A stretch of DNA of 48,887 nt, taken from contig JBDGRM010000020.1 in the NCBI GenBank assembly GCA_042218035.1, positions 3,759-52,645 on the forward strand, read 5' to 3'. The number at the start of each line of letters is the position of its first letter. The stretch's first letter is position 1. Both the position numbers and the translations under genes were made by a program. Positions 9,973 through 48,852 of this stretch are shown here, piece after piece. The notes beneath the pieces are model-generated. The model did not search any database and was not told the origin of the DNA. It saw only the letters and a program-made list of their open reading frames with translations. The stretch is from Candidatus Magasanikiibacteriota bacterium. Its GTDB lineage: Bacteria > Patescibacteriota > Minisyncoccia > UBA6257 > GWB1-50-10.

Positions 9973-9974
9973 CC

Positions 9975-10578: not shown

Positions 10579-10983
10579 TTAATAAAAGATTAAGTTGAGA
10601 ATTTTATCAAGGGTATATAAACCACCTCCTGAGGTAAGAAGAACCAAGCTAGAAACCAAGATTAAAAGTGGGAATTCATAGCCCCCTCTAAAATTTGCTT
10701 CTTTTTTTACAGTAAATAAGATAACCAAGAACTGAATAAAAAACAGCAAAGCAAATAATTGAGTAAGAAAGCCCAAAATCAAAGCAATACCCCCTATAAA
10801 TTCTAACATTGCTACTAACCACCCCCAAAAAAAGGCTGGCCTAAAACCCATATCAGAAAAATCACTTTTTGTCTTTTCCATGTTTTCTATTTTCGGTTTT
10901 CCGTGTACCACCATGATAGCACCCACAACAATTCTTAAAAAAAGCAAGCCCCACTCACTAAAAAGATAAAAGATAGGAATCAT
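10579..10983 (-). CDS. DoxX-family membrane protein
   Basis: 134 aa, 4 TM. The N-terminus LLFLRIVVGAIMVVHG is typical of DoxX. Confidence 0.7.
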   Translation of the reverse strand: MIPIFYLFSEWGLLFLRIVVGAIMVVHGKPKIENMEKTKSDFSDMGFRPAFFWGWLVAMLEFIGGIALILGFLTQLFALLFFIQFLVILFTVKKEANFRGGYEFPLLILVSSLVLLTSGGGLYTLDKILNLIFY

Positions 10984-12743: not shown

Positions 12744-12748
12744 ATTTT

Positions 12749-12895
12749 TTATTTATTTTTTTTAGATTTTTTACTCTTTGGTTTATATGGTTTTGGTTCC
12801 CCACCTCCACGACTTCTAATTGATTTGATATCGGACTTCATTGTACGTATATAAATTTTTTCAAATTTTGCAGCGTCAGGAGTCTTGTTCTTCAT
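12749..12895 (-). CDS. Candidate 48-codon ORF immediately upstream of the 587-aa gene
   Basis: Own translation: MKNKTPDAAKFEKIYIRTMKSDIKSIRSRGGGEPKPYKPKSKKSKKNK*. The stop lies in an A-run 5 nt before the ATG at 12743, in a different frame. It is below the ORF-track cutoff. Confidence 0.35.
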   Translation of the reverse strand: MKNKTPDAAKFEKIYIRTMKSDIKSIRSRGGGEPKPYKPKSKKSKKNK

Positions 12896-12984
12896 TTTAT
12901 TCTTTTTTAATTATGCACCACACTCTTGATTCTATCAACCTTTTCGTAAAAACCATGAAACTGGCCTCCCTATTATTATAGCAA

Positions 12985-13012
12985 ATAAAAAACCCCGGAC
13001 CGCCCGAGGTTT
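12985..13012 (-). terminator. Intrinsic terminator downstream of pnp
   Basis: Reverse strand reads ACCTCGG-GCGGT-CCGGGGT followed by TTTTTTA. Confidence 0.6.
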
Positions 13013-13036
13013 TTGTCCTTAGTTTTTTTGATCTTA

Positions 13037-15076
13037 TCAGGGTTGATCAACACCCACCATTGAAAGCTTTATACTACCATCTTTCTCAACCTCAGTTATT
13101 TTTGCTCTTACTCTGTCTCCTACTTCAAGTTCATCTTCTACATCGTCTATATAATCATCCGAAATTTCAGAAATATGAATCATTCCACTTGATCCTCTGC
13201 CGAATTCTACTATTGCCCCAAAATCAAGTAGTTTTACAACTTCTCCCTCTATGACTTCACCAGTTTCATAGTCACGGACAACCTCCTTTACTATCTGAAG
13301 TGTTTTTTTTGCTTTGCTTTCATCCTTGGAGGAAATAAATATTTCTCCGTTATCCTCTATATTAATGGAAACCTCGTCTTCTCCAACTATAGAAAGAATA
13401 TGGTCAATAGTTTTTCCACCTGGACCAATAAGAGTACCTATCTTTTCTTCGGGAATTTCATGCTTTAGTATGGTTGGGGCATTTTCAGAAACCTTTTTTG
13501 ATGGGGAGGGAATGGCTTTTTCCATCACCTCGATTATTTGCATTCGTGCTTTGCGAGCCTTAGGAAGAGCCTCCTTGAATATTTCTTTCGTAATTCCTTT
13601 TCTCTTTACATCCATTTGAATTGCGCTAATACCATTTCTTGTGCCAGCAACTTTTAAGTCCATTTCGCCGAAATGATCTTCTGGACCCTGAATATCTGTA
13701 AGTATTTCCCACCCATTCTTATTTGAAACAAGCCCCATGGCTATACCCGCTACGTACTCTTTTAGATCAACACCGGCATCCATAAGACTCATGCAGGAAG
13801 AACAAATTGCACCCATCGAAGTAGAACCATTGGAAGATAGAGTTTCAGCTACAACCCTGAGAGTGTAGGGAAAATCTTCTTTTGAGGGGACAAAAGGGAG
13901 CAGAGCCTTTCTAGCAAGCGCACCATGTCCTATCTCCCGCCTTCCTGGACTTCCCGGCCTGCCGGGTTCACCTACAGAGAAATCAGGGAAGTTGTAATGA
14001 AGCATAAAACGCTTTTCACCGGATTTTTCAATAGTTTCAACCACTTTCTTTTCACTTGGGGGAGCCAAAGTTGTCATAGCAAGAAGTTGTGTATCACCTC
14101 TTATAAAAAGACCAGAACCGTGGACCTTATTAAATAAATCTACTTCCGAATAAAGGTCTCTTACCTCCCCAACCCCCCTTCCATCAGGTCTTTCACCTTC
14201 TTCTATTATCATTTTGCTAATAGCTTTTTTAATTTTGTCATCAAGCAACTCTTTCCCTGCGGATATTTGTTCTGATTCTTTTTCATTTTCTTCAAGTTTT
14301 TCTTCCAATTCATTTTCTATTTTTGAGGTTTTATCCTCTTTAATTGCTTTACGAAGTGTGCTTTCTTCAATTCCTTCTACTGCTTTTTTTACTTCTTTGT
14401 CAGGTTTGCTAAACTCAATGTTTTCTTTTTCTTTTCCTTCTTTTTTAATTATGTCTTTTTGAAAACTCACTAAATCGCTTATTTCATCTTGTGCATTTTC
14501 AAATAAATCTACAACTGTTTCCTCTTCAGCCTCATTACCTCCAAGCTCTATCATGTTTATTTTTTTAGAAGGACCTGCAAAAAAGGCTTCTATATCATTT
14601 TTTTCTGATTTGATTTCCAGTCCTCCTACAGGACCATCCCATGGGATGTCGGAAACCCCAAGAGCAGTAGAAGCCGCTAATAAGGAGATAGTTTCAAGGT
14701 CGTGAATTTCATCATATGCAAGAATAGTAATCATCACTTGCACACTTCTTCTAAGACGATGGTCAAAAAGCGGACGTATACATCTATCTATTAATCGAGA
14801 AGAAAGGGTAGCGCCCTCAGAAGGTTTTCCTTCACGACGTACAAAGCGAGAACCCAATATTTCTCCCACTGCATAGAACCGCTCTTCATAATCAACCCTT
14901 AGAGGGAAGAAAGGAAGGTCTTGATCATCTTCACTCATAGTAGCGGTGGCAAGCACTACTGAGTCTCCATAACGACCTATAACTGATCCATTTGCCTGTT
15001 TTGCTAAGTCAGAAAAAATTAACTCTACCTCCTCACCCTGTATATTTGTTTGATATTTTCTGTTATTTAAATTCAC
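13037..15076 (-). CDS. pnp: Polyribonucleotide nucleotidyltransferase (PNPase)
   Basis: 679 aa. Two RNase PH-like cores followed by KH (GPGGKTI) and S1 (GEVVKLLDFGAIVEF) domains. Confidence 0.95.
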   Translation of the reverse strand: MNLNNRKYQTNIQGEEVELIFSDLAKQANGSVIGRYGDSVVLATATMSEDDQDLPFFPLRVDYEERFYAVGEILGSRFVRREGKPSEGATLSSRLIDRCIRPLFDHRLRRSVQVMITILAYDEIHDLETISLLAASTALGVSDIPWDGPVGGLEIKSEKNDIEAFFAGPSKKINMIELGGNEAEEETVVDLFENAQDEISDLVSFQKDIIKKEGKEKENIEFSKPDKEVKKAVEGIEESTLRKAIKEDKTSKIENELEEKLEENEKESEQISAGKELLDDKIKKAISKMIIEEGERPDGRGVGEVRDLYSEVDLFNKVHGSGLFIRGDTQLLAMTTLAPPSEKKVVETIEKSGEKRFMLHYNFPDFSVGEPGRPGSPGRREIGHGALARKALLPFVPSKEDFPYTLRVVAETLSSNGSTSMGAICSSCMSLMDAGVDLKEYVAGIAMGLVSNKNGWEILTDIQGPEDHFGEMDLKVAGTRNGISAIQMDVKRKGITKEIFKEALPKARKARMQIIEVMEKAIPSPSKKVSENAPTILKHEIPEEKIGTLIGPGGKTIDHILSIVGEDEVSINIEDNGEIFISSKDESKAKKTLQIVKEVVRDYETGEVIEGEVVKLLDFGAIVEFGRGSSGMIHISEISDDYIDDVEDELEVGDRVRAKITEVEKDGSIKLSMVGVDQP

Positions 15077-15089
15077 TTTTAATAAAGAA

Positions 15090-15602
15090 TTATTTATTGG
15101 GAATATCCATTAGAGAATTATTTATATCAGCTATTTCTATGAATCGATCAGCTGTTTCCTTTAGATTTGAAGAAGTAGCTTTTTCAAACGCCGCTACTTC
15201 AATTTGTTTTCCAAGGCCCCACTTAAGGTATTCTACAAGTGGTATAAAATCACCATCACCAGTAACTAAAATAACGACATCCAGATCTTTAGCAATTCTA
15301 ATAGCGTCTACAGCCATTCCTACGTCCCAGTCCGCCTTTTTAACACCTGAAGAGTAAACCTTTAAATCTTTTATTCTTAACTCAAAACCTGCCTTCTCAA
15401 GAGCCTCAAAAAAAGATTTTTCTCCTAGGGTGGAGTCACTCTTTACAACATAAGCCACTGATCGAATTAAATCTCTATCACCCACCAAACCTTCTAAAAG
15501 GTTACTAAAATTCACCCTCGCATTATGGAGGTTTTTTGCAGAATGGTATATATTTTGGACATCTACAAAAATGCCCACTCTTTGAGAAGCAGTTTTTGGC
15601 AT
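15090..15602 (-). CDS. NYN/LabA-like (DUF88) PIN-fold putative RNase
   Basis: 170 aa. VGIFVDVQNIYHSAK... and VILVTGDGDFIPLVEYLK are the conserved acidic NYN motifs. Confidence 0.8.
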   Translation of the reverse strand: MPKTASQRVGIFVDVQNIYHSAKNLHNARVNFSNLLEGLVGDRDLIRSVAYVVKSDSTLGEKSFFEALEKAGFELRIKDLKVYSSGVKKADWDVGMAVDAIRIAKDLDVVILVTGDGDFIPLVEYLKWGLGKQIEVAAFEKATSSNLKETADRFIEIADINNSLMDIPNK

Positions 15603-15872
15603 TTATACTTCAACACCGAGTTCCTCACTGAGCTCTTCGTAGGCCTCTTCATTTTCTCGTTTCAGATATTTTAATAAACGTCTTCGCTTTCCGACCATTT
15701 TCAAGAGACCTCTTCGAGAGTTGTGATCCTTCGGATGCTCTTTTAGGTGGTTAACTAATTTATTAATTCTTTTTGTTAACAAACCCACTTGAACTGTAGC
15801 GGAACCTGTATCGTTGTCGTGTTTTTGGTATTTTTCTATAACAGACTCTTTTTGATCTTGAGATAAAGACAT
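15603..15872 (-). CDS. rpsO: 30S ribosomal protein S15
   Basis: 89 aa. DTGSATVQVGLLTKRINKLVNHLKEHPKDHNSRRGLLKMVGKRRRLLKYL matches the S15 signature. Confidence 0.95.
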   Translation of the reverse strand: MSLSQDQKESVIEKYQKHDNDTGSATVQVGLLTKRINKLVNHLKEHPKDHNSRRGLLKMVGKRRRLLKYLKRENEEAYEELSEELGVEV

Positions 15873-16120
15873 TTATATCCTTATTGAATTAAATTAAAAC
15901 CATTTTACGCTTAATATAGTGTATCAGGAATTTGCGTTTATGGCAAATTAAAGCTGTTTATTCAGTTTACTTTAAGATGTCTTAATGGGCTTAAATTTTC
16001 CTTATTTAATGAATAACACGTTATAGAAAGTTCTGAAAAAGTATATAAAGAGACTTGTAAAAGCCAAAAAATAAACCCGAAAAGCGTAAATTTGGATAAT
16101 AATTGTCAAATAATCTTTGC

Positions 16121-16149
16121 TTGACAAGAGTGTGTGTCTGTAAATAATA
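16121..16149 (+). promoter_or_regulatory. Candidate sigma-70 promoter for the LysM/M23 gene
   Basis: TTGACA (16121..16126), a 17-nt spacer, then ATAATA (16144..16149). Confidence 0.4.
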
Positions 16150-16241
16150 GTTCATGATAGCCGTAATATGGGTTTACTTGCTACATTTGGAAGTAAAAAC
16201 CAAAAGCTATTTCATATAAAAATAAAAATTCAATAAAATAT

Positions 16242-17270
16242 TTGGCTTCATCTTTTGAGTCTGAACTCATTACGTTAACGATTTTAATTGTCACTTTTTT
16301 GGGGATTGCAACTGCATTAAGTTCTATGCAGTACTTAAAAAGGAACGCCCAAAAAAATGTGAAACAATTAGGCGGTCCTTCAGATTCGGTAAGTTTCCAG
16401 ATTAAAACAGCAGCGATAATGGGTGGACCCATTTCGCCGAAAAAAGGGGAAGAGGTCTCAGGAAAGAGTAAAAGGAATTCTTCCTTTGTAAATAAGAATG
16501 GAGCTGCTATTGGAGTTTCCTCCCCGGTAAGTGATGTTTTTCATAAAAGAAATGGCCAAAAAATATATGAAGTCCAAGAAGGTGACACTCTTTCTGAGAT
16601 AGCCTCTAGTTTTGATATAAGCTTAAAGACTTTAAAATTAGCCAATCCTGAAATAGTGTCTACTATTTCACCGGGAGACAAGTTAATCATACTGCCCGTT
16701 TCCGGAATTTTATACAAAACTAAAAAGAGTGACACTCTCGCAAGTGTAGCAAAAGAATATGAGATAAACCCGGAATTAATAAAAGAATACAACCCAAACC
16801 ATCACAAACTTTTCGATCGCAAAGGCTCCACCATTGTACTTCCATATGCTGAGCCAAAAAATAAGTGGACTTATTTAAAAAAACGAGAAGAGAACCAAAA
16901 AGAATTGAATAACTTCTTTAAAAGGCCCGCCGCCGGTTATAATTGGGGAAAGCTTCATTACGATAACGCTGTTGATATAGCTAATGACTGCGGCACCCCC
17001 ATAAAGGCAGCTGCTGAAGGGATTGTTATTAAAGCGAGTGATGAAGGTTTTTGGAACGACGGATACGGCAATTATATACTAATCGAGCATCCAAATGGAA
17101 CAAAGACAAAATACGCCCACACAAAAGAGAATTTTGTAGCGGAAGGAGACTATGTATTACAAGGCGAAAAGATAGCTATTATAGGAAATTCCGGAAACAC
17201 TCATGGCCCTACTGGTTGCCATCTCCATTTTGAGGTTAGAGGAGGACAGAATCCGTTTGCACAAAACTAA
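16242..17270 (+). CDS. Membrane-anchored LysM-repeat M23 (LytM-type) peptidoglycan endopeptidase
   Basis: 342 aa from a TTG start. N-terminal TM, two LysM repeats (YEVQEGDTLSEIASSFDISLKTLKLANP; YKTKKSDTLASVAKEYEINPELIKEYNP), and M23 motifs (HYDNAVDIA, GNYILIEHPNG, GNSGNTHGPTGCHLHFEV). The exact start is uncertain. Confidence 0.85.
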   Translation: MASSFESELITLTILIVTFLGIATALSSMQYLKRNAQKNVKQLGGPSDSVSFQIKTAAIMGGPISPKKGEEVSGKSKRNSSFVNKNGAAIGVSSPVSDVFHKRNGQKIYEVQEGDTLSEIASSFDISLKTLKLANPEIVSTISPGDKLIILPVSGILYKTKKSDTLASVAKEYEINPELIKEYNPNHHKLFDRKGSTIVLPYAEPKNKWTYLKKREENQKELNNFFKRPAAGYNWGKLHYDNAVDIANDCGTPIKAAAEGIVIKASDEGFWNDGYGNYILIEHPNGTKTKYAHTKENFVAEGDYVLQGEKIAIIGNSGNTHGPTGCHLHFEVRGGQNPFAQN

Positions 17271-17282
17271 CAAAATAAAAAC

Positions 17283-17304
17283 CCCGCTCCGACTTCGGAG
17301 CGGG
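17283..17304. terminator. Bidirectional intrinsic terminator
   Basis: CCCGCTCCG-ACTT-CGGAGCGGG, a 9-bp stem. A-run upstream and T-rich sequence downstream. The strong T-run is on the reverse strand. Confidence 0.75.
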
Positions 17305-17311
17305 ACAAATT

Positions 17312-17533
17312 TTATAATTCATGGTTGACCAAGTTCGTTTGTATTAAGCCTGGATCCGTATTAAAGACCCCTTCTAGTTCTGATAAAGACTTTTCTTTTC
17401 GGTTCCGAAACCTTCTTCTGCGGCCAAGTTCGTGACTCCCTTCTTGGCCACAAAATTGAACTACCTCCTCCCGAGACTTAGAAGGAGTTGGGTATTGCAG
17501 GCTGGAAACGAAAGCTTCTTTTTGAAGAGCCAT
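17312..17533 (-). CDS. Hypothetical 73-aa basic protein (could instead be a small RNA unit)
   Basis: ATG-initiated ORF lying between an extended -10 element (TGATATAAT, reverse strand, 17607..17599) and the terminator at 17283..17304. No recognisable motif and no obvious Shine-Dalgarno. Confidence 0.35.
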   Translation of the reverse strand: MALQKEAFVSSLQYPTPSKSREEVVQFCGQEGSHELGRRRRFRNRKEKSLSELEGVFNTDPGLIQTNLVNHEL

Positions 17534-17628
17534 AGCCAGGGCAGGATTTTAAAAAGGAGAGTAAAGGTGATTCAGTCTCTTTTAAAAGACCTAATACTAT
17601 TATATCACATTAAAATAAAATCACCCTC

Positions 17629-17979
17629 TTATTTTTTGTCTTCTTTTTTGCATTCTTTGCAAAGATGGGATTCCGGGTCTATCTTTATGATTTCGACCGG
17701 AATTGAGTTTCCACACTTTTTGCAATCTCCATATTCTCCTGCTTCAATTTTTTCTAAAGCTTTTTCAATATCTTCTAGCCTAGTTTCAAGATGACTTTTT
17801 ATTCCAAAGTAATGAGCATGTTCTTCAGATTCATCAGTAATTTCATCGCCTCCGTCCACATCATCTCCAAGGTCTGTCATGTCGTGAAGATGACTCAATA
17901 AATTTTCAACTTTCTCTTTTTCCTCATTGAGATGTTCTTTCACCTCCAAATTTTTTATTTGTTTTTCATTTAAACTCAT
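17629..17979 (-). CDS. DksA/TraR-family C4 zinc-finger protein
   Basis: C-terminal CKKCGNSIP...CKECKK zinc finger preceded by a coiled coil. I place the start at the ATG at 17979 (MSLNEKQIKNLE...) rather than the TTG at 18036 used in the track. Confidence 0.7.
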   Translation of the reverse strand: MSLNEKQIKNLEVKEHLNEEKEKVENLLSHLHDMTDLGDDVDGGDEITDESEEHAHYFGIKSHLETRLEDIEKALEKIEAGEYGDCKKCGNSIPVEIIKIDPESHLCKECKKEDKK

Positions 17980-18054
17980 AAATATTTTATATTTACTTGT
18001 AAATAAAGTATACATTAATAAGGATTGAATTTCCAAGATTGTGATTAAAAAAAT

Positions 18055-19140
18055 ATGAATATTTTAGCCATAGAAACATCGTGTGACGAAACCAGCCTAT
18101 CTGTAATTTGTGCAGAAGGCAAAATTAAAGATTTGCAATTTAAAATAGAGAACAACCTGGTAGCTTCTCAGGTTGAGGTTCATGAAGAATGGGGTGGGGT
18201 TGTGCCTCATTTAGCAACAAGAGAGCATGAGAAAAACTTGCCTATCCTTTTTAAGAAGTTGTTCGAGGACCCTCAAATTAATTTTGATGATATCGACAGG
18301 GTAGCAGTTACCGTGGGGCCGGGTTTGGATCCATGCCTGTGGGCCGGGATTAATTTTGCCAAAAAGGTAAAGAAAAAACATTTTTCTCAATCTGAACTTG
18401 TCGGGGTAAACCATTTAGAAGGTCACTTATATAGTTTTTTGCTTTCGCAAAAAACAAATAACAAATTTCAAACCCCAAACTCCAAAGAGCTCTTTCCAGC
18501 TGTTCATCTTCTTGTTTCCGGTGGGCATACGATTTTGTTTCTTATGGAATCTATGACTGAGGTTACAAAACTTGGAGAAACTCAAGATGATGCAGCGGGT
18601 GAAGCATTTGATAAAGTTGCAAGACTTCTTGGGTTAGGCTATCCGGGGGGGCCTGAAATTGAACGGACGGCTAAAGAGGGTGCTCCAGATTCAATTAATT
18701 TTCCTCGACCGATGATTCATTCCGGCGATTTCAATTTTAGTTTTTCTGGGCTCAAGACAGCAGTTCTTTATTACCTAAAAGAGAACTTTAAAGAGCTGAA
18801 AAAAGAAAATGTGAAATTCAATATGAAGAAAACTGAGAGACAGAATTTGGCTGCCAGCTTTCAGGAAGCCGTAATAGATACATTGGTTTCAAAAAATTTG
18901 CAGGCCCAAAAGGAGTTTTCCGCTAACTCAATAATGCTTTCTGGGGGAGTAGCGGCTAATTCGTGCCTTCAAGAAAAACTGAGAAGTGAGGCGGACAAAG
19001 AAGAAATAAGTTTTTACACTCCGCCGATAAAATATGATACCGATAATGCTGCTATGATTGCCGTAGCCTCTTATATAAATTATTTAGAAGGCAGAGAATA
19101 CAATTTAGAGTCCCAACCAAACCTAAATATAAGCAACTGA
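18055..19140 (+). CDS. tsaD: tRNA N6-adenosine threonylcarbamoyltransferase TsaD
   Basis: 361 aa. ILAIETSCDETS, VNHLEGH, GGVAAN and other Kae1/TsaD signatures. Ends in TGA. Confidence 0.92.
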   Translation: MNILAIETSCDETSLSVICAEGKIKDLQFKIENNLVASQVEVHEEWGGVVPHLATREHEKNLPILFKKLFEDPQINFDDIDRVAVTVGPGLDPCLWAGINFAKKVKKKHFSQSELVGVNHLEGHLYSFLLSQKTNNKFQTPNSKELFPAVHLLVSGGHTILFLMESMTEVTKLGETQDDAAGEAFDKVARLLGLGYPGGPEIERTAKEGAPDSINFPRPMIHSGDFNFSFSGLKTAVLYYLKENFKELKKENVKFNMKKTERQNLAASFQEAVIDTLVSKNLQAQKEFSANSIMLSGGVAANSCLQEKLRSEADKEEISFYTPPIKYDTDNAAMIAVASYINYLEGREYNLESQPNLNISN

Positions 19141-19297
19141 ATCTGTCATCTCAAAAATTTCGATTAAAGCAGACTAAGATAGTTTTAATATGCATGAAAC
19201 TTCACTTGTATTAGCTTTGGAAAAACAACTTTTAACCTTATAATCAATGTATACTTTTAGACCCCACCAATTAATTGCTAAATACTACAATTAAAAA

Positions 19298-21574
19298 ATG
19301 GACAAAAGATTTAACCACGAAGAGTTGGAAAAAAATATTTATAAAGCCTGGGAGAATTCTGGATATTTCAACCCAGATAAATGTGTAGAAGATGAAATTG
19401 CTTCAGAGAACGCTGATACCTTTTCCATGATTTTACCTCCTCCGAACGTCACGGGCACTCTTCATATGGGACATGCTGAAATGTTGGCAATTGAGGATAT
19501 CCTTACTAGATATCATAGAATGACAGGCAAAAAAACTTTGTGGATTCCGGGCACTGACCATGCTGCTATAGCAACTCAGTCAAAGGTAGAAAAAAAATTA
19601 CATGAAGAAGGGGGAAAAACAAGGTATGACCTCGGAAGAGATAAATTTTTGGAAAAGGTACAAGAGTTTGCAAAAGATTCTCAAGAAACCATTATAACCC
19701 AAACTAAAAAAATAGGAGCCAGCCTTGATTGGAGTCGCCAAGCCTATACCTTGGATAAAGAACGAAACAAGGCAGTAAAAACAGCTTTTAAGGAAATGTA
19801 CGAAGAGGGGCTTATTTACAGAGCTGACAGAGTAATTAATTGGGACCCAAAAGGGCAGACAGTGGTTTCTGATGATGAGGTGGAATATGAAGAGGTGGAA
19901 GGCAAGCTTTACACCTTTAAATATTCTGAAGACTTTCCTTTTGCAATTAGCACTACTCGACCTGAGACAAAGCTGGGAGATACAGCTGTAGCTGTTCATC
20001 CTGAAGATGAGAGATATTCTGAATATGTAGGAAAAGAATATCAAATAAAATTTCTAGGGAAAGAAAGGACAATTGAAGTGGTTGCTGATGAGAAAATTGA
20101 TCCTGAATTTGGCACTGGAGCAGTAGGAATTACTCCTGCTCACTCTCATGATGACTATGACATTGCTCGCAGACACAATCTGGAACTTGATCAAATAATA
20201 AACGAACAAGGTGAATTAATGACAGGTGAAGAGATAGGAGTAAAAGGTAAAAGCACTCAAAGAGCAAGAGAAATTATAGTGGATGAGCTGAAAGATAGAG
20301 GGCTGATGGAAAAAGTAGAAGAAATAGAACAATCTATAGGGAAGGCCGAAAGGAGTGGAGGTGTAATTGAGCCGCTACCAAAGCTGCAGTGGTTCATTGA
20401 TGTGGAGAAAAAATTCAAACTTGGTCCAAATTCTATTAACGGAGTTGAGTCGGACGAAAAAGTGAGCCTTAAAGAGCTTATGCAGAAAGTAGTGGAAAAC
20501 AGCCAAATTGATATTTTACCTGAAAGGTTTGAGAAAATTTATTTCCACTGGATAGATAATTTAAGAGATTGGTGCATAAGTAGACAAATTTGGTTTGGCC
20601 ACCGTATTCCGGTGTGGTATTGCCAAGAACCCGAAGGTAAAACCCAAGCCGAGGAAAACTCCGATTCAGAACAAGCACAGTTTAGAAAATCTAAATTAAA
20701 AGAAAATAAAGAAAGTAAATGCTTGGAACCGATTGTTGCAGTCGAGGAACCTAAAAGTTGCCCCCACTGTGGAGGACAAGTCCGGCAGGACCTCGACACC
20801 TTGGATACTTGGTTCTCTTCAGGTCTTTGGACATTTTCAACTCTAGGCTGGCCTTCAGAAACAGAAGACCTCCAAAACTTTCATCCCACGAACGTGCTCG
20901 AAACAGGATACGATATTCTTTTCTTTTGGGTGGCTCGCATGATTCTTATGTCCACTTTCCTTTTAGGGGAAGTTCCGTTCAAAAATGTTTATCTCCACGG
21001 TATGGTTTTGGACAGCCAGGGAGATAAAATGTCTAAGTCAAAGGGCAACATCATAGACCCGGTGGATATGATTGAAAAGTATGGAGCCGATGCAACTCGG
21101 TTTAGCCTTATAATAGGCACGGGCCCCGGAAGTGATGTTAATATTTCAGAAGAAAAAGTGGAGTCATATCATAAATTAACTACAAAGATTTGGAATGTAG
21201 CTCGGTTTCTGAATATGAATAAAAAAGAAGTGGGTGATATAGAGATAGAGGGCGAGGATCAGAAAATATTCGAAAAATTTCAAGAAAAGAAAAGAAAAGT
21301 GGGAGAAAATATAGAAAATTATGAATTCCATCTCGGAGCTGAAAATGGATACCATTTCTTTTGGGATGATTTTGCTAATGGAGTCCTTGAGGATGTAAAA
21401 CCGAGAATGTTTTCAGATGACACAACAGAAAGTAAAAAAGCATACAAAGTACTCTCTAAAAGCTTTTTAGAGTGCCTAAAAATGCTTCATCCTTTTATCC
21501 CTTATGTTACTGAGGAAATATACCAACGTCTTGAATTGGGAGAAGAAGAGTTTCTTATGGTAGAGGAATGGTAA
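19298..21574 (+). CDS. valS: Valyl-tRNA synthetase (short form, no C-terminal coiled coil)
   Basis: 758 aa. PPPNVTGTLHMGHA (HIGH), KMSKSKGN, and a CP1 editing-domain layout. Confidence 0.93.
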   Translation: MDKRFNHEELEKNIYKAWENSGYFNPDKCVEDEIASENADTFSMILPPPNVTGTLHMGHAEMLAIEDILTRYHRMTGKKTLWIPGTDHAAIATQSKVEKKLHEEGGKTRYDLGRDKFLEKVQEFAKDSQETIITQTKKIGASLDWSRQAYTLDKERNKAVKTAFKEMYEEGLIYRADRVINWDPKGQTVVSDDEVEYEEVEGKLYTFKYSEDFPFAISTTRPETKLGDTAVAVHPEDERYSEYVGKEYQIKFLGKERTIEVVADEKIDPEFGTGAVGITPAHSHDDYDIARRHNLELDQIINEQGELMTGEEIGVKGKSTQRAREIIVDELKDRGLMEKVEEIEQSIGKAERSGGVIEPLPKLQWFIDVEKKFKLGPNSINGVESDEKVSLKELMQKVVENSQIDILPERFEKIYFHWIDNLRDWCISRQIWFGHRIPVWYCQEPEGKTQAEENSDSEQAQFRKSKLKENKESKCLEPIVAVEEPKSCPHCGGQVRQDLDTLDTWFSSGLWTFSTLGWPSETEDLQNFHPTNVLETGYDILFFWVARMILMSTFLLGEVPFKNVYLHGMVLDSQGDKMSKSKGNIIDPVDMIEKYGADATRFSLIIGTGPGSDVNISEEKVESYHKLTTKIWNVARFLNMNKKEVGDIEIEGEDQKIFEKFQEKKRKVGENIENYEFHLGAENGYHFFWDDFANGVLEDVKPRMFSDDTTESKKAYKVLSKSFLECLKMLHPFIPYVTEEIYQRLELGEEEFLMVEEW

Positions 21575-33887: not shown

Positions 33888-34250
33888 ATGAGCCTGATAA
33901 CAAAGCCTCTTTTCTCTGTTTTTTCAAATATAATATCAATTCTTGCAGCGCTCTATCTTGTAAAGGGGGTAACTTTCAGCGGTGATTTGAAAGGCTTGTT
34001 TATAGCAGCGGCTATTTTTACCGCCATTAATTACTTTCTAAAGCCATTGCTAAAGCTTCTTTTGGGGCCTGTAATAATCATTACTTTAGGGATTGGGACC
34101 ATATTCGTAAATGCTCTCACCCTCTATTTACTTGACATATTTACTGCTCATCTTACAATAAATGGGTACTTATCACTGTTTTTGGCTACTCTGATAATTG
34201 CAATCTTCAACTGGCTTGTAGAGTTTAGTGCAGAGTCTGCTCATGAGTAA
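33888..34250 (+). CDS. Small 4-TM membrane protein, DUF360/phage-holin-4-like (YvlD type)
   Basis: 120 aa. Its pattern (FIAAAIFTAINYFLKPLLKLLLGPVIIITLGI) resembles the holin-4/DUF360 family as I remember it. Confidence 0.5.
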   Translation: MSLITKPLFSVFSNIISILAALYLVKGVTFSGDLKGLFIAAAIFTAINYFLKPLLKLLLGPVIIITLGIGTIFVNALTLYLLDIFTAHLTINGYLSLFLATLIIAIFNWLVEFSAESAHE

Positions 34251-42553: not shown

Positions 42554-42955
42554 ATGAGGGGTTTTATAGAAAGAGCAAGAGAAAAGTTAAAAGAAATCAG
42601 AGAGTCCGATGATGCCACAAAAAAACGTTATTTGATAGGAGGGTCGACTTTAATCTTTCTTCTGGTAATAGGGGTATGGCTTGTATGGTTTAGCAATAGT
42701 ATCCCCAGGGTTGTTCCACCAGAAAAACCTGAAGTAGCTGAAAAACAAAAAATGAAGCCCGAGAAAACAGATAAAAATGTCGACGGCTTTTTCTCAAAAG
42801 TAAAAAGAGGCTTTCAAATAACATTGCAAGGTTCTAAAAAAAGCTTAGAAGATTTTGGAAAAATATGGACAAAGGGCCTCAATTCTTTTCGAGAAGCCTT
42901 AAAAAGAAAGCGAGTCTATAAATTTAAGAAACAATCAACTACCACTAAAAAATAA
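42554..42955 (+). CDS. Hypothetical membrane-anchored basic protein
   Basis: 133 aa with one TM ([20 protein letters not shown]). Its stop overlaps the gyrA start. Confidence 0.55.
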
Positions 42956-45408
42956 TGTCAGAAGATAAATCTCAAAAAGAGGCAGCAGAAATAAGAGACG
43001 CTGAAATTACCGACGAGCTTCAAGATTCATATCTTGATTATGCGATGTCCGTCATAGTCTCAAGGGCCTTGCCGGACATGAGGGATGGACTAAAGCCCGT
43101 TCAGAGAAGAATATTGTGGGCTATGTGGAATATGGGCCTCGATTCGAGCTCAGCTCATAAAAAGTCCGCACGTGTAGTAGGAAAAACAATGGGGGTTTAT
43201 CACCCTCACGGAGACAAGGCTGTTTATGACACCTTGGTTCGAATGGCTCAAGATTTCTCACTGCGTTACCCTCTTGTAGATGGGCAAGGAAACTTTGGTA
43301 ATGTGGACGGCGATTCAGCTGCAGCTCAGCGTTACACGGAAGCAAAGCTGGAAGCGATTTCTGAAGAGATGCTCGAAGACATAGAAAAAGACACCGTAGA
43401 GTGGTCACCTAATTATGACAACACCCAAGAGGAACCCGATTATCTTCCTGCCAAGCTTCCGAATCTCGTTTTGAACGGAACCATGGGAATTGCCGTGGGT
43501 ATGGCTACAAATATTCCACCTCATAACCTTACTGAGACTGTAGAAGCTCTTAAATACCTGGCTAAAAATGAAGATGCTACGGTTTCTGAGTTGATGGAAT
43601 ATATTCAAGCCCCCGACTTCCCTACCGGAGGAGTAGTATATGACCAAGAAAAAATAGAAGAAGCTTACTCAACCGGAAGAGGTTCGGTGACTATTAGAGC
43701 AAAAACTGAAATCGAGGAAACCGAAGGGAAAAGCGGTCCCCGTATAGCAGTCACCGAAATCCCTTTTCAGGTTACCAAGTCTAAGCTTATAAAGAAGACA
43801 GCAAAACTAGTTAAAGATGATAAATTAAACGGGGTAAAGAATATAAGAGATGAATCGGGCAGAGAAGGTTTGCGCATTGTCCTTGAACTGAAACAGGGAG
43901 CCAACCCTCAAAGAATTTTGAATTCTCTTTTTAAACACACCCGCTTCCAGAAGAAGTTCCACTTTAATATGGTGGCTTTGGAGGACGGCATTCAGCCGAA
44001 AGTTGTTTCTCTAAAAGATTTACTCGCCGCTTACTTGAAGCACAGAAAGAAAGTCGTTAGACGACGAGCCGAATATAAACTTTCCAAAGCCGAAGACAGA
44101 GCTCATGTTCTTGAGGGTCTTGTTTCAGCCCTTGATGAAATAGACAAGGTAATCGAAACCATTAAGTCTTCTGAAGACAGAAGTGATGCCCAGCAAAACC
44201 TTATGGAGAACTTTGACCTTACAGAAAGGCAGTCCGACGCCATCCTGAAGATGCGCCTTCAAACTCTAGCTTCTCTGGCTGCCAAAAAGCTTAAAGATGA
44301 ACTCAAAGAAAAGAAAGAATTAATTGAAGAATTGAATGAATTACTGGATGACCCTGAGAAAATAAAAGAAGAAATAATTGAAGAGCTCGAAGAGCTTAAA
44401 GAAAAATATGGAGACGAAAGAAAAACTCAAATAGTTGAAGAAAGTGTAGAAGAGTTCAGCCAAGAAGACTTTATACCTCAAAAAGAAACAGTAATTCTTT
44501 TAACAAAAGAAGGTTACATCAAAAGAGTCTCCCCCACCTCCTTTAAGGTGCAAAAGAGAGGAGGGCAGGGGATAATTGGTTTTGACCTTAAAGAGGAAGA
44601 CACTGTTGAGAACTTTGCCTTGGCAGACACTCATGATGATGTGCTCTTCTTTTCCGATAAAGGCCAAGTGTTTCAAACAAAAGTTTATGATATCCCTAAA
44701 GGTAAAAGAACTACGAAAGGGAGCTTGATTGATACTTTCCTGGGTGTAGAAGATAATGAGAATATTACTTCTTTTATTACATGCTCCCTTGAGGACAATG
44801 AACAAAATTATCTTGTTATGGCTACGGAAAACGGCACCATAAAGAAAACACCCATGGAGGAATTTGAAAATATTCAAAGCAATGGCATTAAAGCCCTTAG
44901 TCTTGATTCATCTGATAAACTTTTGTGGGCCGGAATATCAAACGGAGAATGTGATATAATCCTCACAACTAAGAACGGTAAAGCAATAAGATTCAGCGAA
45001 GATGAAGTCAGGCCGATGGGAAGAGGTGCTGCAGGAGTGAAAGCAGCAGACCTCAAAAATGATGATAAAGTAGTAGGTGTGGACGTCATTACTAAAAAGG
45101 GAAAAAATGAGCGACTGTTAGTAGTAACGGAAAAAGGTTATGGCAAACAAACGGAAATAGATGATTACAGCACCCAAAAGAGAGGCGGGGTGGGTGTGAA
45201 AACTGCTCAGGTTTCGGACGATACTGGGCCTGTAGCGGCTACCAAACTTGTTGATGACAGTGTGGACCAATTACTTGCTTTTTCTGCAAAAGGTCAAGTT
45301 ATAAAAATGGGTCTTGAAGATATTCAAATTTCAAGCAGAGATACAAGGGGAGTCAAGGTTATGGAACTCCAAGAAGGAGATACCCTTTCTGGTTTTATTA
45401 CTCTCTAA
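42955..45408 (+). CDS. gyrA: DNA gyrase subunit A
   Basis: 817 aa. [17 protein letters not shown], the [10 protein letters not shown] active-site Tyr region, and C-terminal beta-pinwheel repeats. Confidence 0.96.
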
Positions 45409-45411: not shown

Positions 45412-46695
45412 ATGTCCAACACAAGAAAAATAATAATGGCAGTAGTGGGGGCTACCGTCTTGGTAGTTCTTTTGGTGGTTTTGGGCTTCTTTTTTGGTAG
45501 GCCCTCCCAGTCACCTAAAAGCCGAAAAGCAAAGTTAGACTTTTGGGTGGTTGGAGAACAAAAAAGCTCTTTTAAAACGGCAATTTCTAGCTTTAAGTCT
45601 GAGTACCCCAACGTAGAAATAAACCTCCGCGTTTTTGACTCCGTGGAAAATTATGAAAATACATTGCTTAAAGCAATGGCAACAAATGAAGGGCCGGACA
45701 TATTTTCGATTCGTAATAACGACCTCTACCGAAAAAAAGATAAAATAGAACCGCTCAACAACCGAGATTATTCCCTCGTAGACTTGAAAGAAGATTTTCC
45801 TCAAATTGTTGAAAAAAGCTTTGTCCGGGATGGGCGTATTTATGCACTGCCATTATACATAGATACACTCAGCCTTATCTACAACAAAAATATATTTAAT
45901 GAGAAAGGGATAGTATTCCCCCCTAAAAAGTGGAAGAAATTCAAAAAAATAGCTAAGGAGCTGACTAAGAAAGGTCCCCAAGGTAAAATTGAAAGAGCAG
46001 GAACCGCTTTTGGGCGGGCAGATAATATAAAAAACTTTAAAGATATCTTGTCTCTTCTTCTGTTTCAGAAGGGAGCCCAACTTATGTCTGAAAATTACTC
46101 AAGCGCTGATTTGTCCGGCCAACAAAGCAATCAAGCATTCCAATTTTACACTCAATTCGGCAAACCAAAAAGCAATTACTATATGTGGCCGGAATCCATG
46201 CCGAATTCCCGAAAAGCATTTAGCCAAAAGAAGGCGGCAATGATAATTGACTACTCCTCAGCAGTTCGATCGATCCGGCAAAAATCCCCCTTCCTTGAGG
46301 TGGGAGTTGCAAAAGTTCCTCAATTTTCTAGCCAAAGGAATGAAATATCACTCGGTCACTTCTGGGGTTATACTGTTTCAACCAAAACGAATTACCCTAC
46401 TATAGCATGGGATTTTATTCTTCATTTAACAACGGACCCTTCTGTGGCAAACAGCTACATTAAGAAAACCGAAAAACCTCCAGCATTAAAGCGATTGATT
46501 AAATATTATAAGACAAAGCCAAAATTTGAAACATTTGCTTCTCAGGCTCTTACAGCAACTTCCTGGACTGAGCCCAATCCTGACAAAATAAAAAACATTT
46601 TTGCTGATACTATAGAAGCTATAATAGAAAAAGAGGAAAGCGTTGGAACAGCCCTGGATAAAGCGGCACAATCTATAAATAATTTAGTAAAGTAA
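45412..46695 (+). CDS. Extracellular solute-binding protein, family 1 type (sugar/polyamine-like), orphan
   Basis: 427 aa with an N-terminal signal anchor and an SBP_bac_1-like layout. No permease or ATPase adjacent. The gap is 3 nt after gyrA and 2 nt before the next gene. Confidence 0.65.
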   Translation: MSNTRKIIMAVVGATVLVVLLVVLGFFFGRPSQSPKSRKAKLDFWVVGEQKSSFKTAISSFKSEYPNVEINLRVFDSVENYENTLLKAMATNEGPDIFSIRNNDLYRKKDKIEPLNNRDYSLVDLKEDFPQIVEKSFVRDGRIYALPLYIDTLSLIYNKNIFNEKGIVFPPKKWKKFKKIAKELTKKGPQGKIERAGTAFGRADNIKNFKDILSLLLFQKGAQLMSENYSSADLSGQQSNQAFQFYTQFGKPKSNYYMWPESMPNSRKAFSQKKAAMIIDYSSAVRSIRQKSPFLEVGVAKVPQFSSQRNEISLGHFWGYTVSTKTNYPTIAWDFILHLTTDPSVANSYIKKTEKPPALKRLIKYYKTKPKFETFASQALTATSWTEPNPDKIKNIFADTIEAIIEKEESVGTALDKAAQSINNLVK

Positions 46696-46697: not shown

Positions 46698-47099
46698 ATG
46701 AGAACTCTTGCTTTATTTTTAACTATATTTTTTGCGTTTAGCCTTTTGTTTCCGCTTACTGCGTTTGGAGCGAATCCAATTTGGAATGGGAGATACGATG
46801 TAGATTGTAATGTTGACGGAGCCTGTAGCTTATGTGATGGTCTGAAAGTCGGGGTTAATATAATAACCTTCATTCGAGATTTAGCTCTTGCTGTAGGCAC
46901 TCTAATGGCAGCAGCCGGAGCAGTTATGATAATGGCAGCCGGAGCAAATGAAAGTTGGTACAATCAGGGAAAAGATATGATTAAAAATGCTATAATAGGA
47001 ATTGCGATAGTTCTTTCTTCATGGTTAATAATAAACCTTTTCATCAATATATTGGGCGGAGCAAGCCCCAACCCCCTCTCAGAGGGTATAACATGCTAA
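46698..47099 (+). CDS. VirB2/TrbC-like (T4SS-pilin-like) small secreted membrane protein, paralog 1
   Basis: 133 aa. Signal peptide (..LTAFG/AN), a Cys-containing mature N-terminus (CNVDGACSLC), two TM helices separated by a short polar loop (AGANESWYNQGKDMIKN), and a C-terminal Cys. Confidence 0.6.
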   Translation: MRTLALFLTIFFAFSLLFPLTAFGANPIWNGRYDVDCNVDGACSLCDGLKVGVNIITFIRDLALAVGTLMAAAGAVMIMAAGANESWYNQGKDMIKNAIIGIAIVLSSWLIINLFINILGGASPNPLSEGITC

Positions 47100-47106
47100 T
47101 TTAACT

Positions 47107-47490
47107 ATGAAAAAATTTGCCGCTTTTACAATTTTTATATTAATTTTCTCTCTAAGTTTTGCTTTTCCCTTTATATCTTTTAGTGCGGGAGGCGAAGGTC
47201 CCGATTGTGGTGATGATGCAACAATTTGTCTTACCAACCCTCTTGGAGGGAGCGGAGACTTGATAGGAGTGGTAAATAATGTAATAAGAGATTTAAGGGA
47301 TAGAATAGCCCCGCCTGTAGTTGCTCTCATGGTATTATACGGCGGTTTTCAGATGCTTTTTGCAAAAGGTGAGCCCGAGCAGTTCAAGAATGGAAAGCAA
47401 ACCTTATACTATGCAGTAATAGGGTATGTTATAATATTAGTAGCCAGCGGGATATCTGAGATTATAACTCAAATATTGACAGCTGGCTAA
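47107..47490 (+). CDS. VirB2/TrbC-like small secreted membrane protein, paralog 2
   Basis: 127 aa. Signal peptide, a CGDDATIC segment, then TM - FAKGEPEQFKNGKQ loop - TM. Confidence 0.6.
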   Translation: MKKFAAFTIFILIFSLSFAFPFISFSAGGEGPDCGDDATICLTNPLGGSGDLIGVVNNVIRDLRDRIAPPVVALMVLYGGFQMLFAKGEPEQFKNGKQTLYYAVIGYVIILVASGISEIITQILTAG

Positions 47491-47559
47491 TCATACTTAA
47501 AAATTAAGATATAAGATATAGAAAGGTCGAATATATTTATTTACCAAATTAAAAGAATA

Positions 47560-47937
47560 ATGAGTCGACTCAAAAATTTCCTTTACATTTCTGTAATACC
47601 TGCTTTAGCTGGTGTTTTGGCTCCAAGTTCTGCTTTAGCTCAAACCCCCCCAAGAGACAATCCTGCGCCTGATCCCGTTCAGGGCGTTACAGTTTCAGGA
47701 TTTATAGGACTTTTAGAGCAAATCCTTGGCTGGGTTTACACTATATTTTTCATTGCCGCAGCTGGTGCCTTTCTTTACAGCGCATTTCTCTACCTTACAG
47801 CAGCCGGCGATGAGGAACAGGTTGAAGATGCTAAGAATGCCTTGATCTATGGAATTGTCGGAGTTGCAGTAGCGTTGCTTGCCTTTGCAATAGATGGCTT
47901 TGTAGATAATTTGCTTTCAGAAGGCATTTCTTCTTAA
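47560..47937 (+). CDS. VirB2/TrbC-like small secreted membrane protein, paralog 3 (higher GC)
   Basis: 125 aa. Signal peptide (..SSALA/QT), then IFFIAAAGAFLYSAFLYLTAAGDEEQVEDAKNALIYGIVGVAVALLAFAID. Clearly related to paralog 4. Confidence 0.6.
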   Translation: MSRLKNFLYISVIPALAGVLAPSSALAQTPPRDNPAPDPVQGVTVSGFIGLLEQILGWVYTIFFIAAAGAFLYSAFLYLTAAGDEEQVEDAKNALIYGIVGVAVALLAFAIDGFVDNLLSEGISS

Positions 47938-47962
47938 TTTTTTATTTTGTTGGAACCTTAAA

Positions 47963-47997
47963 AGCCGAAACCCCTCCCTTAGGGTTTCGGCTTTTTA
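47963..47997 (+). terminator. Intrinsic terminator after paralog 3
   Basis: AGCCGAAACCC-N8-GGGTTTCGGCT (11-bp stem) followed by a T-run. Confidence 0.85.
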
Positions 47998-48021
47998 TAT
48001 AAAAATATTTCTATAATTTCG

Positions 48022-48378
48022 ATGCAATTATTTAAAAATTTAAAATTCTACGTAATAACCTTCTTTTCTTTTTTGCTGGTTCCGAAACTTGTGCTTTCTG
48101 CAGGTGAAGACCCTCCTCCTGATGTAAGCAGTATTGAGGATATAGTTAATATACTAGAATTTATTTTAGAAAAAGCATACCAAATATTTTTTATTGCAGC
48201 TGCAGGCTCAATTTTATACTCAGCTTATATGTTCTTATTTGCAACCGAATCAGACGAGCAAATTACAAAAGCTCGAAGGGGTCTTTATTATACGGTTTCA
48301 GCTATAGTCGTTGCCCTTTTAGCATACGTTCTCGATAATCTGGTAGCAGATATTATCTCCTCGGGTGTTAATAACTAA
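48022..48378 (+). CDS. VirB2/TrbC-like small secreted membrane protein, paralog 4
   Basis: 118 aa. Signal peptide (..LVLS/AG), then IFFIAAAGSILYSAYMFLFATESDEQITKARRGLYYTVSAIVVALLAYVLD. Confidence 0.6.
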   Translation: MQLFKNLKFYVITFFSFLLVPKLVLSAGEDPPPDVSSIEDIVNILEFILEKAYQIFFIAAAGSILYSAYMFLFATESDEQITKARRGLYYTVSAIVVALLAYVLDNLVADIISSGVNN

Positions 48379-48382: not shown

Positions 48383-48412
48383 GAAAAACCCTCCGGACTT
48401 CGGAGGGTTTTT
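48383..48412. terminator. Bidirectional intrinsic terminator
   Basis: ACCCTCCG-GACTT-CGGAGGGT flanked by an A-run and a T-run. It serves paralog 4 (+) and ORFan #3 (-). Confidence 0.85.
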
Positions 48413-48417: not shown

Positions 48418-48852
48418 TTACTTCACCGATTCTAATATTTTTTTCTGAGTTGTAATAAATACGCAATTTTCCCCCTTCAGGGGTTTGAATTTCCCCAAAT
48501 CCTGAAGGCTTTTTAGCTGGAGGTGGGTACCGGGCGGAACCACCCGGATTCCCTCATGCTCCAGCTTAACTTTTTCCCCCCCTATGTTTCCAGAGGGGCG
48601 CAGACTCACCCAATGAAGGGCATTTCTGCTTTCAATTTCGGGACTCCACCTCTCTTTGAGAAGGGGAATTACAAAGCTATCCCCCTGTTTCAGCTCGACA
48701 ATTCCGGAGCTTGGATGAGCCACCGGAAACTGGCTGGCAAGCTTTTTACACTTACCAACCAGTTCAAAACTAACTTTCTTTTTGTCTTTGCTGGGGTCGG
48801 GCGGAGGGGGCGGCTTTTTAGTCTTAGTTTCAGTGGAATCAGTTTTAGCCAC
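48418..48852 (-). CDS. Hypothetical protein, GC-rich ORFan #3 (the 5' end may continue beyond the window)
   Basis: 144 aa from a GTG start. The frame stays open upstream to position 48887. 34 of 60 nt are G+C at 48541..48600. K/P-rich N-terminus (KKPPPPPDPSKDKKK). No motif recognised. Confidence 0.65.
   Translation of the reverse strand: MAKTDSTETKTKKPPPPPDPSKDKKKVSFELVGKCKKLASQFPVAHPSSGIVELKQGDSFVIPLLKERWSPEIESRNALHWVSLRPSGNIGGEKVKLEHEGIRVVPPGTHLQLKSLQDLGKFKPLKGENCVFITTQKKILESVK

Follow-up and report, generated by a model that had tools for sequence, protein, structure and literature searches.

Four tandem genes near the end of a 48.9-kb stretch of DNA (the whole of it hereafter called the window) encode small two-helix proteins, P1 to P4, which we interpret, with a probability of roughly 60%, as pilin-like subunits of the VirB2/TrbC superfamily that belong to a Patescibacteria type IV secretion system (T4SS) and are encoded at a satellite locus apart from the VirB4 machinery. 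The array lies directly behind a gene for an extracellular solute-binding protein (SBP), which is its conserved partner gene, in a part of a Patescibacteria genome from a salt lake that carries housekeeping genes (gyrA, RNase J, trpS, recA, ftsK). A link to the Patescibacteria had been drawn in a preliminary description made from the DNA alone, and it holds: The nearest relatives of this gyrA are found in Patescibacteria metagenome-assembled genomes, and arrays of this kind are documented there.

Layout of the Array and Family Membership of Its Products

The gene for DNA gyrase subunit A (gyrA; 42955..45408, + strand; NCBIfam NF004043, 1090.9 bits, cut-off 902) is followed on the same strand by the gene for a family-1, sugar-type SBP with an N-terminal membrane anchor (45412..46695), and this in turn by the pilin genes P1 (46698..47099; 133 aa), P2 (47107..47490; 127 aa), P3 (47560..47937; 125 aa), and P4 (48022..48378; 118 aa), all four on the + strand and at the coordinates reported in the preliminary description. 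The tight packing described there is likewise correct, with 3 nt between the gyrA stop and the SBP start, 2 nt between SBP and P1, and 7 nt between P1 and P2; P2 and P3 are separated by 69 nt. Its title, however, announced a "gyrA-binding protein operon"; gyrA is indeed present, but the phrase has to be read as gyrA followed by a solute-binding protein, given the matches of the latter to SBP_bac_1 and SBP_bac_8.

A strong terminator-like hairpin lies 3' of P3 (47960..47995, + strand; RNA fold −22.4 kcal/mol, z −4.83; 0 of 200 shuffled sequences fold equally well), and P4 is followed by a hairpin of its own (48384..48412, without assigned strand; −19.1 kcal/mol, z −4.27), which a consensus scan also found on the − strand and which is shared with a convergent ORF (48418-48852, − strand). 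Because one hairpin lies between P3 and P4 and a second follows P4, the four pilin genes are probably not carried on a single transcript, and P4 is probably a separate transcription unit. The gene gyrA is probably the first of the transcription unit of the array, and the spacing and conserved synteny make its cotranscription with pilin genes plausible; with respect to function, gyrA is context and has no part in the pilin system. The sequencing runs that contain the locus are of salt-lake metagenome DNA only, with no RNA run among them.

The VirB2/TrbC-like reading had been offered with a check against Pfam profiles in mind, and these profiles support it. At the curated gathering scores (26.6 bits for PF18895, T4SS_pilin; 27.9 bits for PF04956, TrbC/VirB2), P1 (28.5 bits), P2 (38.8 bits), and P3 (37.3 bits) pass the PF18895 cut-off, and P2 additionally passes that of PF04956 (29.1 bits). 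P4 remains under the cut-off of PF18895 at 20.5 bits; it shares 38% identity with P3 across 118 residues and matches a pilin profile derived from the related loci. The occurrence of one Pfam family in four adjacent open reading frames, together with its recurrence 3' of an orthologous SBP in dozens of loci, argues that the array is not a product of chance. Searches with single proteins against word-indexed databases yielded almost nothing, and an alignment was used as the query instead.

Hydropathy profiles bear out the single architecture proposed for the four proteins, as each of them shows a hydrophobic N-terminal leader with two more hydrophobic stretches behind it. AlphaFold2 models of P1 and P3 form a helix-loop-helix hairpin (residues 45-80 and 85-119/122; pLDDT 82-95), and the Cys-bearing tails are modeled at a pLDDT of about 50-55. 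P1 consists of a signal peptide, an N-terminal tail with cysteines (CNVDGACSLC), the two-helix hairpin, and a C-terminal tail ending in Cys. The distribution of cysteines is as first described (C37, C43, C46, and the final residue C133 in P1; C34 and C41 in P2; none in P3 and P4), and the string noted as common to P3 and P4 is correct in every letter.

Structural searches were less informative. Neither the P1 nor the P3 model has a match in the PDB at E ≤ 0.001 (Foldseek), and a search of the PDB with the pilin sequence profile gave no match. The best-ranked PDB fold for P1 is a subunit of the archaeal conjugation/DNA-import pilus of A. pernix (8dfu), with a TM score of 0.67 on the target and a sequence identity of 12%, but at E = 1.7 this is not significant, and the same entry ranks 33rd for P3. 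As helical hairpins are not discriminating, these results weigh neither for nor against the pilin reading. The N-termini of P1 to P4 lack the prepilin peptidase site of class III leaders (G|F/M-x-x-x-E), and no N_methyl-type Pfam family is among their matches at E ≤ 1; we therefore do not regard them as pilins of type IV pili. A PADLOC scan for defense systems was without matches.

A Conserved SBP-Pilin Block with Three Pilin Types

Examination of 70 loci with an orthologous SBP revealed the block [gyrA]-(methyltransferase)-family-1 SBP-pilin array in 58. Of the 12 loci without an array, ten have at most 245 nt of sequence behind the SBP; L055 is ambiguous, and only L060 genuinely has no pilins. 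In 45 loci gyrA is found within four genes upstream of the SBP, and a methyltransferase gene, absent from the window, lies between the two in 44. The SBP gene and the first pilin gene are a median of 5 nt apart, and they overlap by 4 nt in eight loci. Loci of generic SBPs, by comparison, gave pilin matches in 0 of 13 (sequence up to 10 kb on each side). The papers searched mention neither the SBP linkage nor the fixed order of pilin types described below, and the linkage of SBP and array, usually just 3' of gyrA, is apparently a previously unreported detail.

The SBP itself (SBP_bac_8, 96.5 bits; SBP_bac_1, 93.7 bits) has the fold family of the substrate-binding proteins of ABC importers. Its nearest solved structures are those of sugar SBPs (5ci5, 1eu8), with PDB matches down to E = 8.6e-20, and in this it resembles the family-1 sugar-binding proteins of the MalE/TMBP type. 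Unlike these, it has an N-terminal helix anchor and no adjoining gene for an ABC permease or ATPase, its neighbors in the window being gyrA and the pilins; in the related loci, either gyrA or the methyltransferase precedes it directly and pilins follow. Its genetic coupling is to pilin genes and not to a transporter.

The pilins fall into three types, which follow one another in a fixed order across loci: the Cys-type A first (P1), then type B (P2), then the Cys-free type C (P3, with P4 as a second copy). They are positional orthologs across genomes whose gyrA proteins are only about 50% identical. C37, C43, and C133 of P1 are invariant in 29 first-position orthologs and 121 database homologs; P2-type genes are usually second in the related arrays; and P3 shares 49% identity with the pilin that ends the array of another locus (L002). 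Local identities within the array are 25-38%. The number of type C copies differs by locus, from 1 to about 6, and P3 is a candidate for the major subunit. Because order and diagnostic motifs are kept at about 50% identity in gyrA and 28-41% in the SBP, we consider the three types to be ancient and nonequivalent. In other lineages, the first-position pilins are fused to four PKD domains and a PA14 domain, or bear a He_PIG domain, weak SLT matches, or both, and single polypeptides with 6-17 fused hairpins also exist. The idea of subfunctionalization, raised initially from the cysteine pattern, is strengthened by this positional orthology and by the PKD/PA14 or weak SLT-like matches on the Cys-type elsewhere.

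Comparison with Known Systems

Arrays of this kind are already published and count as a hallmark of the ultrasmall Patescibacteria; the preliminary description overrated the novelty of this one. Quinonero-Coronel et al. (2025; PMC12102498) counted 441 VirB2 arrays, each consisting of 2-11 divergent pilin genes in tandem or one gene apart, with a mean identity of 25% and a maximum of 54%; P1 to P4, as four tandem genes with identities of 25-38%, fall within this definition. Like those arrays, including SEML1_0014-0019 of S. epibionticum ML1 and the "Sec-secreted array" of N. lyticus TM7x, the genes studied here encode proteins with PF18895, with or without PF04956, of equal size and composed of a signal peptide and a hairpin; they also share the tandem arrangement of 2-11 genes, the low identity within the array, and a chromosomal, nonmobile setting. 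They differ in their surroundings, as the ML1 and TM7x arrays lie inside a T4SS cluster, whereas in the window no T4SS gene is found for more than 46 kb upstream of the array. This array also lies 3' of gyrA and a family-1 SBP; in ML1 such an SBP is absent, and PAP2 comes after gyrA.

The absence of secretion machinery, initially noted for 20 kb, extends over the whole 46.7 kb upstream. No VirB4, VirB6, or VirD4 is encoded in the window, which extends only about 0.5 kb downstream of the array. An array without T4SS machinery alongside is a known situation in the Patescibacteria: VirB4 was found in 2417 of 3035 genomes (80%), and of 1948 assemblies only 1135 had pilin genes close to virB4 (PMC12102498). 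Among the loci related to the window, a single one (L068) has the order MTase-SBP-pilin-pilin-PrgI-TrsD-like-VirB4, with a VirB4 score of 370.7 bits against NF045971 (cut-off 325); within the sequence covered for the related loci, relatives of its VirB4, PrgI, and TrsD were found in L068 itself only. To account for the location near gyrA, a replication origin was also considered at the strand switch near 16 kb; the idea was dropped, because DnaA boxes are not enriched (15 matches against 12.3 expected).

P1 to P4 share with the VirB2/TrbC/TraA pilins of Gram-negative T4SSs a cleaved leader, two hydrophobic helices, and a short polar loop, and P2 scores above the TrbC/VirB2 cut-off. However, the host is monoderm, the context lacks VirB5, VirB7, VirB9, and VirB10, and the array holds several nonequivalent paralogs in place of one major pilin. 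The conserved cysteines in both tails of P1 would further contrast with the head-to-tail cyclization of T-pilin, TrbC, and TrhA. A monoderm parallel, from an MPF-FATA system, is the pilin-like protein of the Mbov_0395 family (NF045849) of Mycoplasma integrative and conjugative elements, also a small two-helix protein; P2 to P4 reach 19.5-36.2 bits with its profile, all under the 40-bit cut-off, and its gene is single-copy and inside a mobile element, unlike P1 to P4.

Proposed Role and Alternative Readings

We propose that P1 to P4 are Sec-exported two-helix membrane hairpins that would serve a monoderm, MPF-FATA-derived T4SS from a satellite locus of the form [gyrA]-SBP-pilin A-pilin B-pilin C(n), the VirB4 machinery presumably being encoded elsewhere in the genome, for which the gene order of L068 and the 80% prevalence of VirB4 in the phylum offer indirect support. 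After cleavage of the leader, the proteins would reside in the membrane, their N- and C-termini both facing out, and a VirB4-dependent machine may extract them and build a pilus-like filament or conduit touching the host cell. Type A (P1) would be a surface or tip subunit, with putative disulfides tying its N- and C-terminal tails; in other lineages this position bears the PKD/PA14 domains, which are adhesin-like, or the weak SLT-like matches suggestive of cell-wall lysis. Type C (P3 and P4) would be the bulk subunit. In the least certain step, the membrane-anchored sugar-type SBP may be active at this surface structure too, for instance through the binding of a glycan derived from the host. 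The literature treats a filament of Patescibacteria pilins as a possibility, none having been observed in any Patescibacterium.

Several findings count against this proposal: The window contains no gene for a T4SS ATPase or channel, VirB4 is present in the sequence covered for only one related locus, and up to 17 hairpins can be fused in one polypeptide, which is awkward for a classical pilus subunit. The rarity of a nearby VirB4 and the fused hairpins also favor a second explanation, in which the hairpin proteins are membrane-resident oligomers that form an uptake or sensing device with the permease-less SBP, independently of a T4SS. The SBP-pilin linkage in 58 of 70 loci set against one nearby VirB4, the SBP without adjacent permease gene and with gyrA or methyltransferase and pilins as its neighbors, the resemblance of the 6-17-hairpin polyproteins to polytopic membrane proteins, and the nonsignificant pilus fold match all agree with such a device. 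We nevertheless consider it unlikely, as curated TrbC/VirB2 and T4SS_pilin profiles are matched above their cut-offs, the SBP-pilin block of L068 is directly upstream of PrgI-TrsD-VirB4, and the homologous array of S. epibionticum lies inside the T4SS cluster and is equally essential (Wang et al. 2023; PMC10633639). Fused hairpins, moreover, are still compatible with a filament, because both termini face outward.

A rather doubtful possibility is that (methyltransferase)-SBP-pilin A-B-C constitutes a distinct, conserved, and previously undescribed surface apparatus of Parcubacteria-like Patescibacteria that imports or captures host glycans. The membrane-anchored sugar-binding protein would here work with a three-component VirB2-like filament, a disulfide-locked type A may provide the scaffold onto which adhesin (PKD/PA14) or wall-lytic (SLT-like) domains are grafted, and the T4SS would have been repurposed for nutrient uptake.

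Low identity within the array (25-38%) and the variable number of type C copies might suggest that the array is a cassette of rapidly evolving versions of one pilin that can replace one another and serve to vary host range or antigenicity; such a role has been proposed for the VirB2 paralogs of Bartonella and Anaplasma, and the idea is also offered for Patescibacteria arrays (PMC12102498). The conservation of order and motifs across genomes as divergent in gyrA and SBP as those compared above makes this improbable, since three ancient types in fixed order imply paralogs that are not interchangeable; only the pair P3/P4 fits, yet at just 38% identity. We give very little credence to soluble effector or toxin subunits secreted by Sec and a T4SS in the manner of pertussis toxin, an early reading of the TM7x array, the layout of which resembles ptx/ptl (McLean et al. 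2020): Signal peptides are present, but in every member the mature protein consists mostly of two long hydrophobic helices, the pilin profiles are matched above cut-off, and a search for toxin domains found none. Equally slight is the chance of a remnant of an integrated conjugative element, of which the pilin families would be typical, in view of the housekeeping setting, the lack of any relaxase, integrase, or coupling protein gene in the window, the unremarkable GC content, and the identical chromosomal position in dozens of divergent genomes.

Few systems have been demonstrated to be essential to Patescibacteria living as epibionts, and the T4SS with its pilin array is among them; in cultivated S. 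epibionticum the pilin array is essential. The window adds one further example of such an array. Across a wide clade the array is coupled genetically to a sugar-type binding protein, and type A serves as the attachment point of adhesin-like and possibly wall-lytic domains. Taken together, the ancient pilin types, the domain-bearing type A, and the coupling to the SBP suggest that glycans are recognized where the cell meets its host.

Pilin-like genes downstream of gyrA

The preliminary description had placed four small ORFs in tandem at the end of the window, and both the ORF listing and direct reading confirm them, all on the + strand: P1 (46698-47099; 133 aa), P2 (47107-47490; 127 aa), P3 (47560-47937; 125 aa), and P4 (48022-48378; 118 aa). 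They follow gyrA (42955-45408, +; 817 aa; NF004043 at 1090.9 bits, cut-off 902) and a family-1, sugar-type extracellular solute-binding protein (SBP; 45412-46695, +; 427 aa; SBP_bac_8 at 96.5 bits and SBP_bac_1 at 93.7 bits). The tight packing reported at the outset is also correct, with 3 nt between gyrA and SBP, 2 nt between SBP and P1, and 7 nt between P1 and P2, as are the cysteine pattern of the array and the string common to P3 and P4. Each of the four proteins has a hydrophobic leader and two more hydrophobic segments, and in pairwise comparison they share 25-38% local identity.

Their interpretation as VirB2/TrbC-like pilins is supported by Pfam: P1, P2, and P3 score over the cut-off of PF18895 (T4SS_pilin) with P4 under it, and P2 passes PF04956 (TrbC/VirB2) too. 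In NCBIfam, the Mycoplasma ICE pilin-like family NF045849 was matched at sub-threshold scores only. AlphaFold2 models of P1 and P3 (input alignments of 121 and 70 sequences, respectively) have a leader helix followed by a two-helix hairpin, the hairpin at pLDDT 82-95 and the tails at low confidence. Fold searches with these models were not discriminating and gave no significant match, the conjugation pilus subunit 8dfu ranking first for P1 without significance; a profile search of PDB sequences gave zero matches. An exhaustive profile search (E <= 1e-3) returned 81,372 cluster representatives, and the family is therefore very large. Among its results, three proteins from outside the window (P0126, P0127, and P0129; 552, 606, and 1775 aa) hold 6, 7, and 17 tandem pilin hairpins per polypeptide, each with one N-terminal signal peptide. 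They amount to pilin arrays joined into polyproteins, which could be processed, could remain as covalently linked subunits in an assembly, or could be polytopic membrane proteins.

No RNA hairpin was found in the 69-nt interval between P2 and P3, and strong hairpins lie 3' of P3 (47960-47995; -22.4 kcal/mol, z -4.8) and 3' of P4 (48384-48412; -19.1 kcal/mol, z -4.3). From this layout we infer that gyrA-SBP-P1-P2-P3 is likely to form one transcription unit, with P4 alone in another; the reads holding the locus come only from DNA runs, from salt-lake metagenomes. The hairpin 3' of P4 is common to a convergent 144-aa ORF (48418-48852, -) with a Lys/Pro-rich N-terminus, for which Pfam, NCBIfam, and PADLOC gave no family match.

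Conservation of the SBP-pilin module

The order gyrA-SBP-pilin(s) is kept in both species genomes found via gyrA, whose closest relatives there are Patescibacteria MAGs at 50-54% identity. A metagenome scan queried with an alignment of three SBPs gave 80 loci, in which ORFs were called and then searched with profiles built from the pilins, SBPs, and gyrA. The orthologous-SBP set comprises 70 loci, including the window, at 28-41% SBP identity, and a same-strand pilin array lies downstream of the SBP in 58 of them. Ten of the 12 loci without an array have <=245 nt left 3' of the SBP, the start of a type A (P1-like) pilin being visible in one of these ten; in L055 an unassigned ORF follows the SBP and runs off the contig, leaving L060 as the sole locus truly without pilins. 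In the 13 generic-SBP loci, searched up to 10 kb on each side, pilin hits were absent. Array size, taken from arrays with >=1.5 kb of sequence beyond, is 2-7 pilins (mode 3), and the gap from SBP to pilin has a median of 5 nt, with 4-nt overlaps in eight loci.

Upstream, gyrA is found in 45 loci, where it either adjoins the SBP or has a class I SAM methyltransferase of 180 aa in between. This conserved methyltransferase (~180 aa; Methyltransf_31/25/11, UbiE-like) stands directly 5' of the SBP in 44 loci (e.g., L010:6242-6784) and is absent from the window. In five loci (L056-L058, L063, and L068), each extending 5-10 kb upstream, the methyltransferase-SBP-pilin block occurs without gyrA. The core module thus consists of the SBP and the pilins, and the adjacency to gyrA is lineage synteny. 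The gyrA genes of four loci (L002:1774-5418, also L022, L036, and L045) are 1214-1358 aa long; the insertion in L002 is a putative intein as read from its translation, and the other three, by length alone, may hold the same. The 817-aa gyrA of the window has no such insertion.

Pilin types within the arrays

Across the related loci, the first gene 3' of the SBP is almost always P1-like (type A), with the motif VPCG...C.LC ahead of helix 1 and a C-terminal W...C; the P1 residues C37, C43, and C133 do not vary among 29 orthologues or among 121 database homologues. The second gene is usually P2-like (type B), and further genes, varying in number, are P3-like and cysteine-free (type C, with P3 and P4). 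P3 shares 49% identity with the final pilin of L002, more than with any other member of its own array, and the window is therefore to be read as A-B-C-C'. Judged from these comparisons, the paralogue types are ancient.

In several lineages the first gene is enlarged, to 300-990 aa, and Cys-rich. Four of these expanded type A pilins (386-991 aa) carry, respectively, four PKD domains with PA14 (L066:11219-13834), a He_PIG Ig-like domain with a weak SLT (lytic transglycosylase) match (L037:8278-11253), the pilin domain with a weak SLT match (L033:11476-12636), and the pilin domain only (L002:6937-8127). Such proteins fit an exposed scaffold of adhesin or wall-lytic kind, in agreement with the earlier guess of disulfide-stabilised tips versus major subunits.

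Relation to secretion machinery

The other 46.7 kb of the window holds no VirB4, VirB6, VirD4, relaxase, or integrase, and each of its sizeable ORFs either lacks an assignment or encodes a housekeeping protein (leuS, tatD, class II aminoacyl-tRNA synthetase, PNPase, a second class I aminoacyl-tRNA synthetase of Ile/Leu/Val type, nusA, sigma factor, chromosomal ftsK with gamma domain, recA, RNase J, class I Trp/Tyr-type aminoacyl-tRNA synthetase, and an S1-domain protein). A 120-aa Phage_holin_4_2 family protein with four transmembrane segments lies directly 3' of recA (33888-34250, +), and possible surface proteins are a DUF11-domain protein of 577 aa (8239-9972, -) and a 587-aa protein without family match (10980-12743, -). 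Gene orientation flips from - to + at 15602-16242, with a cumulative GC skew minimum at ~16-18 kb, a pattern resembling that of a replication origin; DnaA boxes are not enriched and a dnaA gene is absent.

Among the locus sequences searched, T4SS genes were found in L068 only. Its cluster (9406-20437, +) runs methyltransferase, SBP, type A pilin, 353-aa double pilin, PrgI, TrsD-like protein, and VirB4 (CD1110 family; NF045971 at 370.7 bits, cut-off 325), continuing past VirB4 (+) with a 152-aa ORF, ComM, a G5/DPBB protein, a 137-aa ORF, and KsgA, such that the SBP-pilin block is contiguous with T4SS genes. In S. epibionticum a six-pilin array within a T4SS cluster is essential (Wang et al. 2023, PMC10633639). 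These two layouts tie the module to T4SS by association.

A survey of 3,035 Patescibacteria genomes with exactly the same Pfam models (Quinonero-Coronel et al. 2025, PMC12102498) found VirB4 in 2,417, and VirB2-like pilins in 1,948 assemblies also having VirB4, close to virB4 in only 1,135 of these; it reported 441 pilin arrays of 2-11 genes with a mean identity of 25%. An array was first seen in TM7x (McLean et al. 2020), and, according to a 2025 review, a pilus in these monoderms is an intriguing possibility. Given these reports, a tandem divergent array apart from virB4 is of a kind already described.

We favor, at a probability of roughly 0.6, a reading in which P1-P4 would be pilin-like subunits of a VirB4-powered filament or conduit at the cell surface, with their genes at a satellite locus and the SBP working at the same structure. 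The main rival, that P1-P4 and the SBP form a membrane-resident, T4SS-independent complex, draws on the rarity of VirB4 nearby and on the polyproteins in which 6-17 hairpins are fused behind one leader; set beside the association in L068 and S. epibionticum, we consider it rather doubtful. That the array is a variant cassette or the remnant of a conjugative element, or that P1-P4 are a secreted toxin, is unlikely. The linkage to the SBP, the fixed order A-B-C, and the cysteines conserved in type A, of which we found no mention in the literature searched, are modest new leads.
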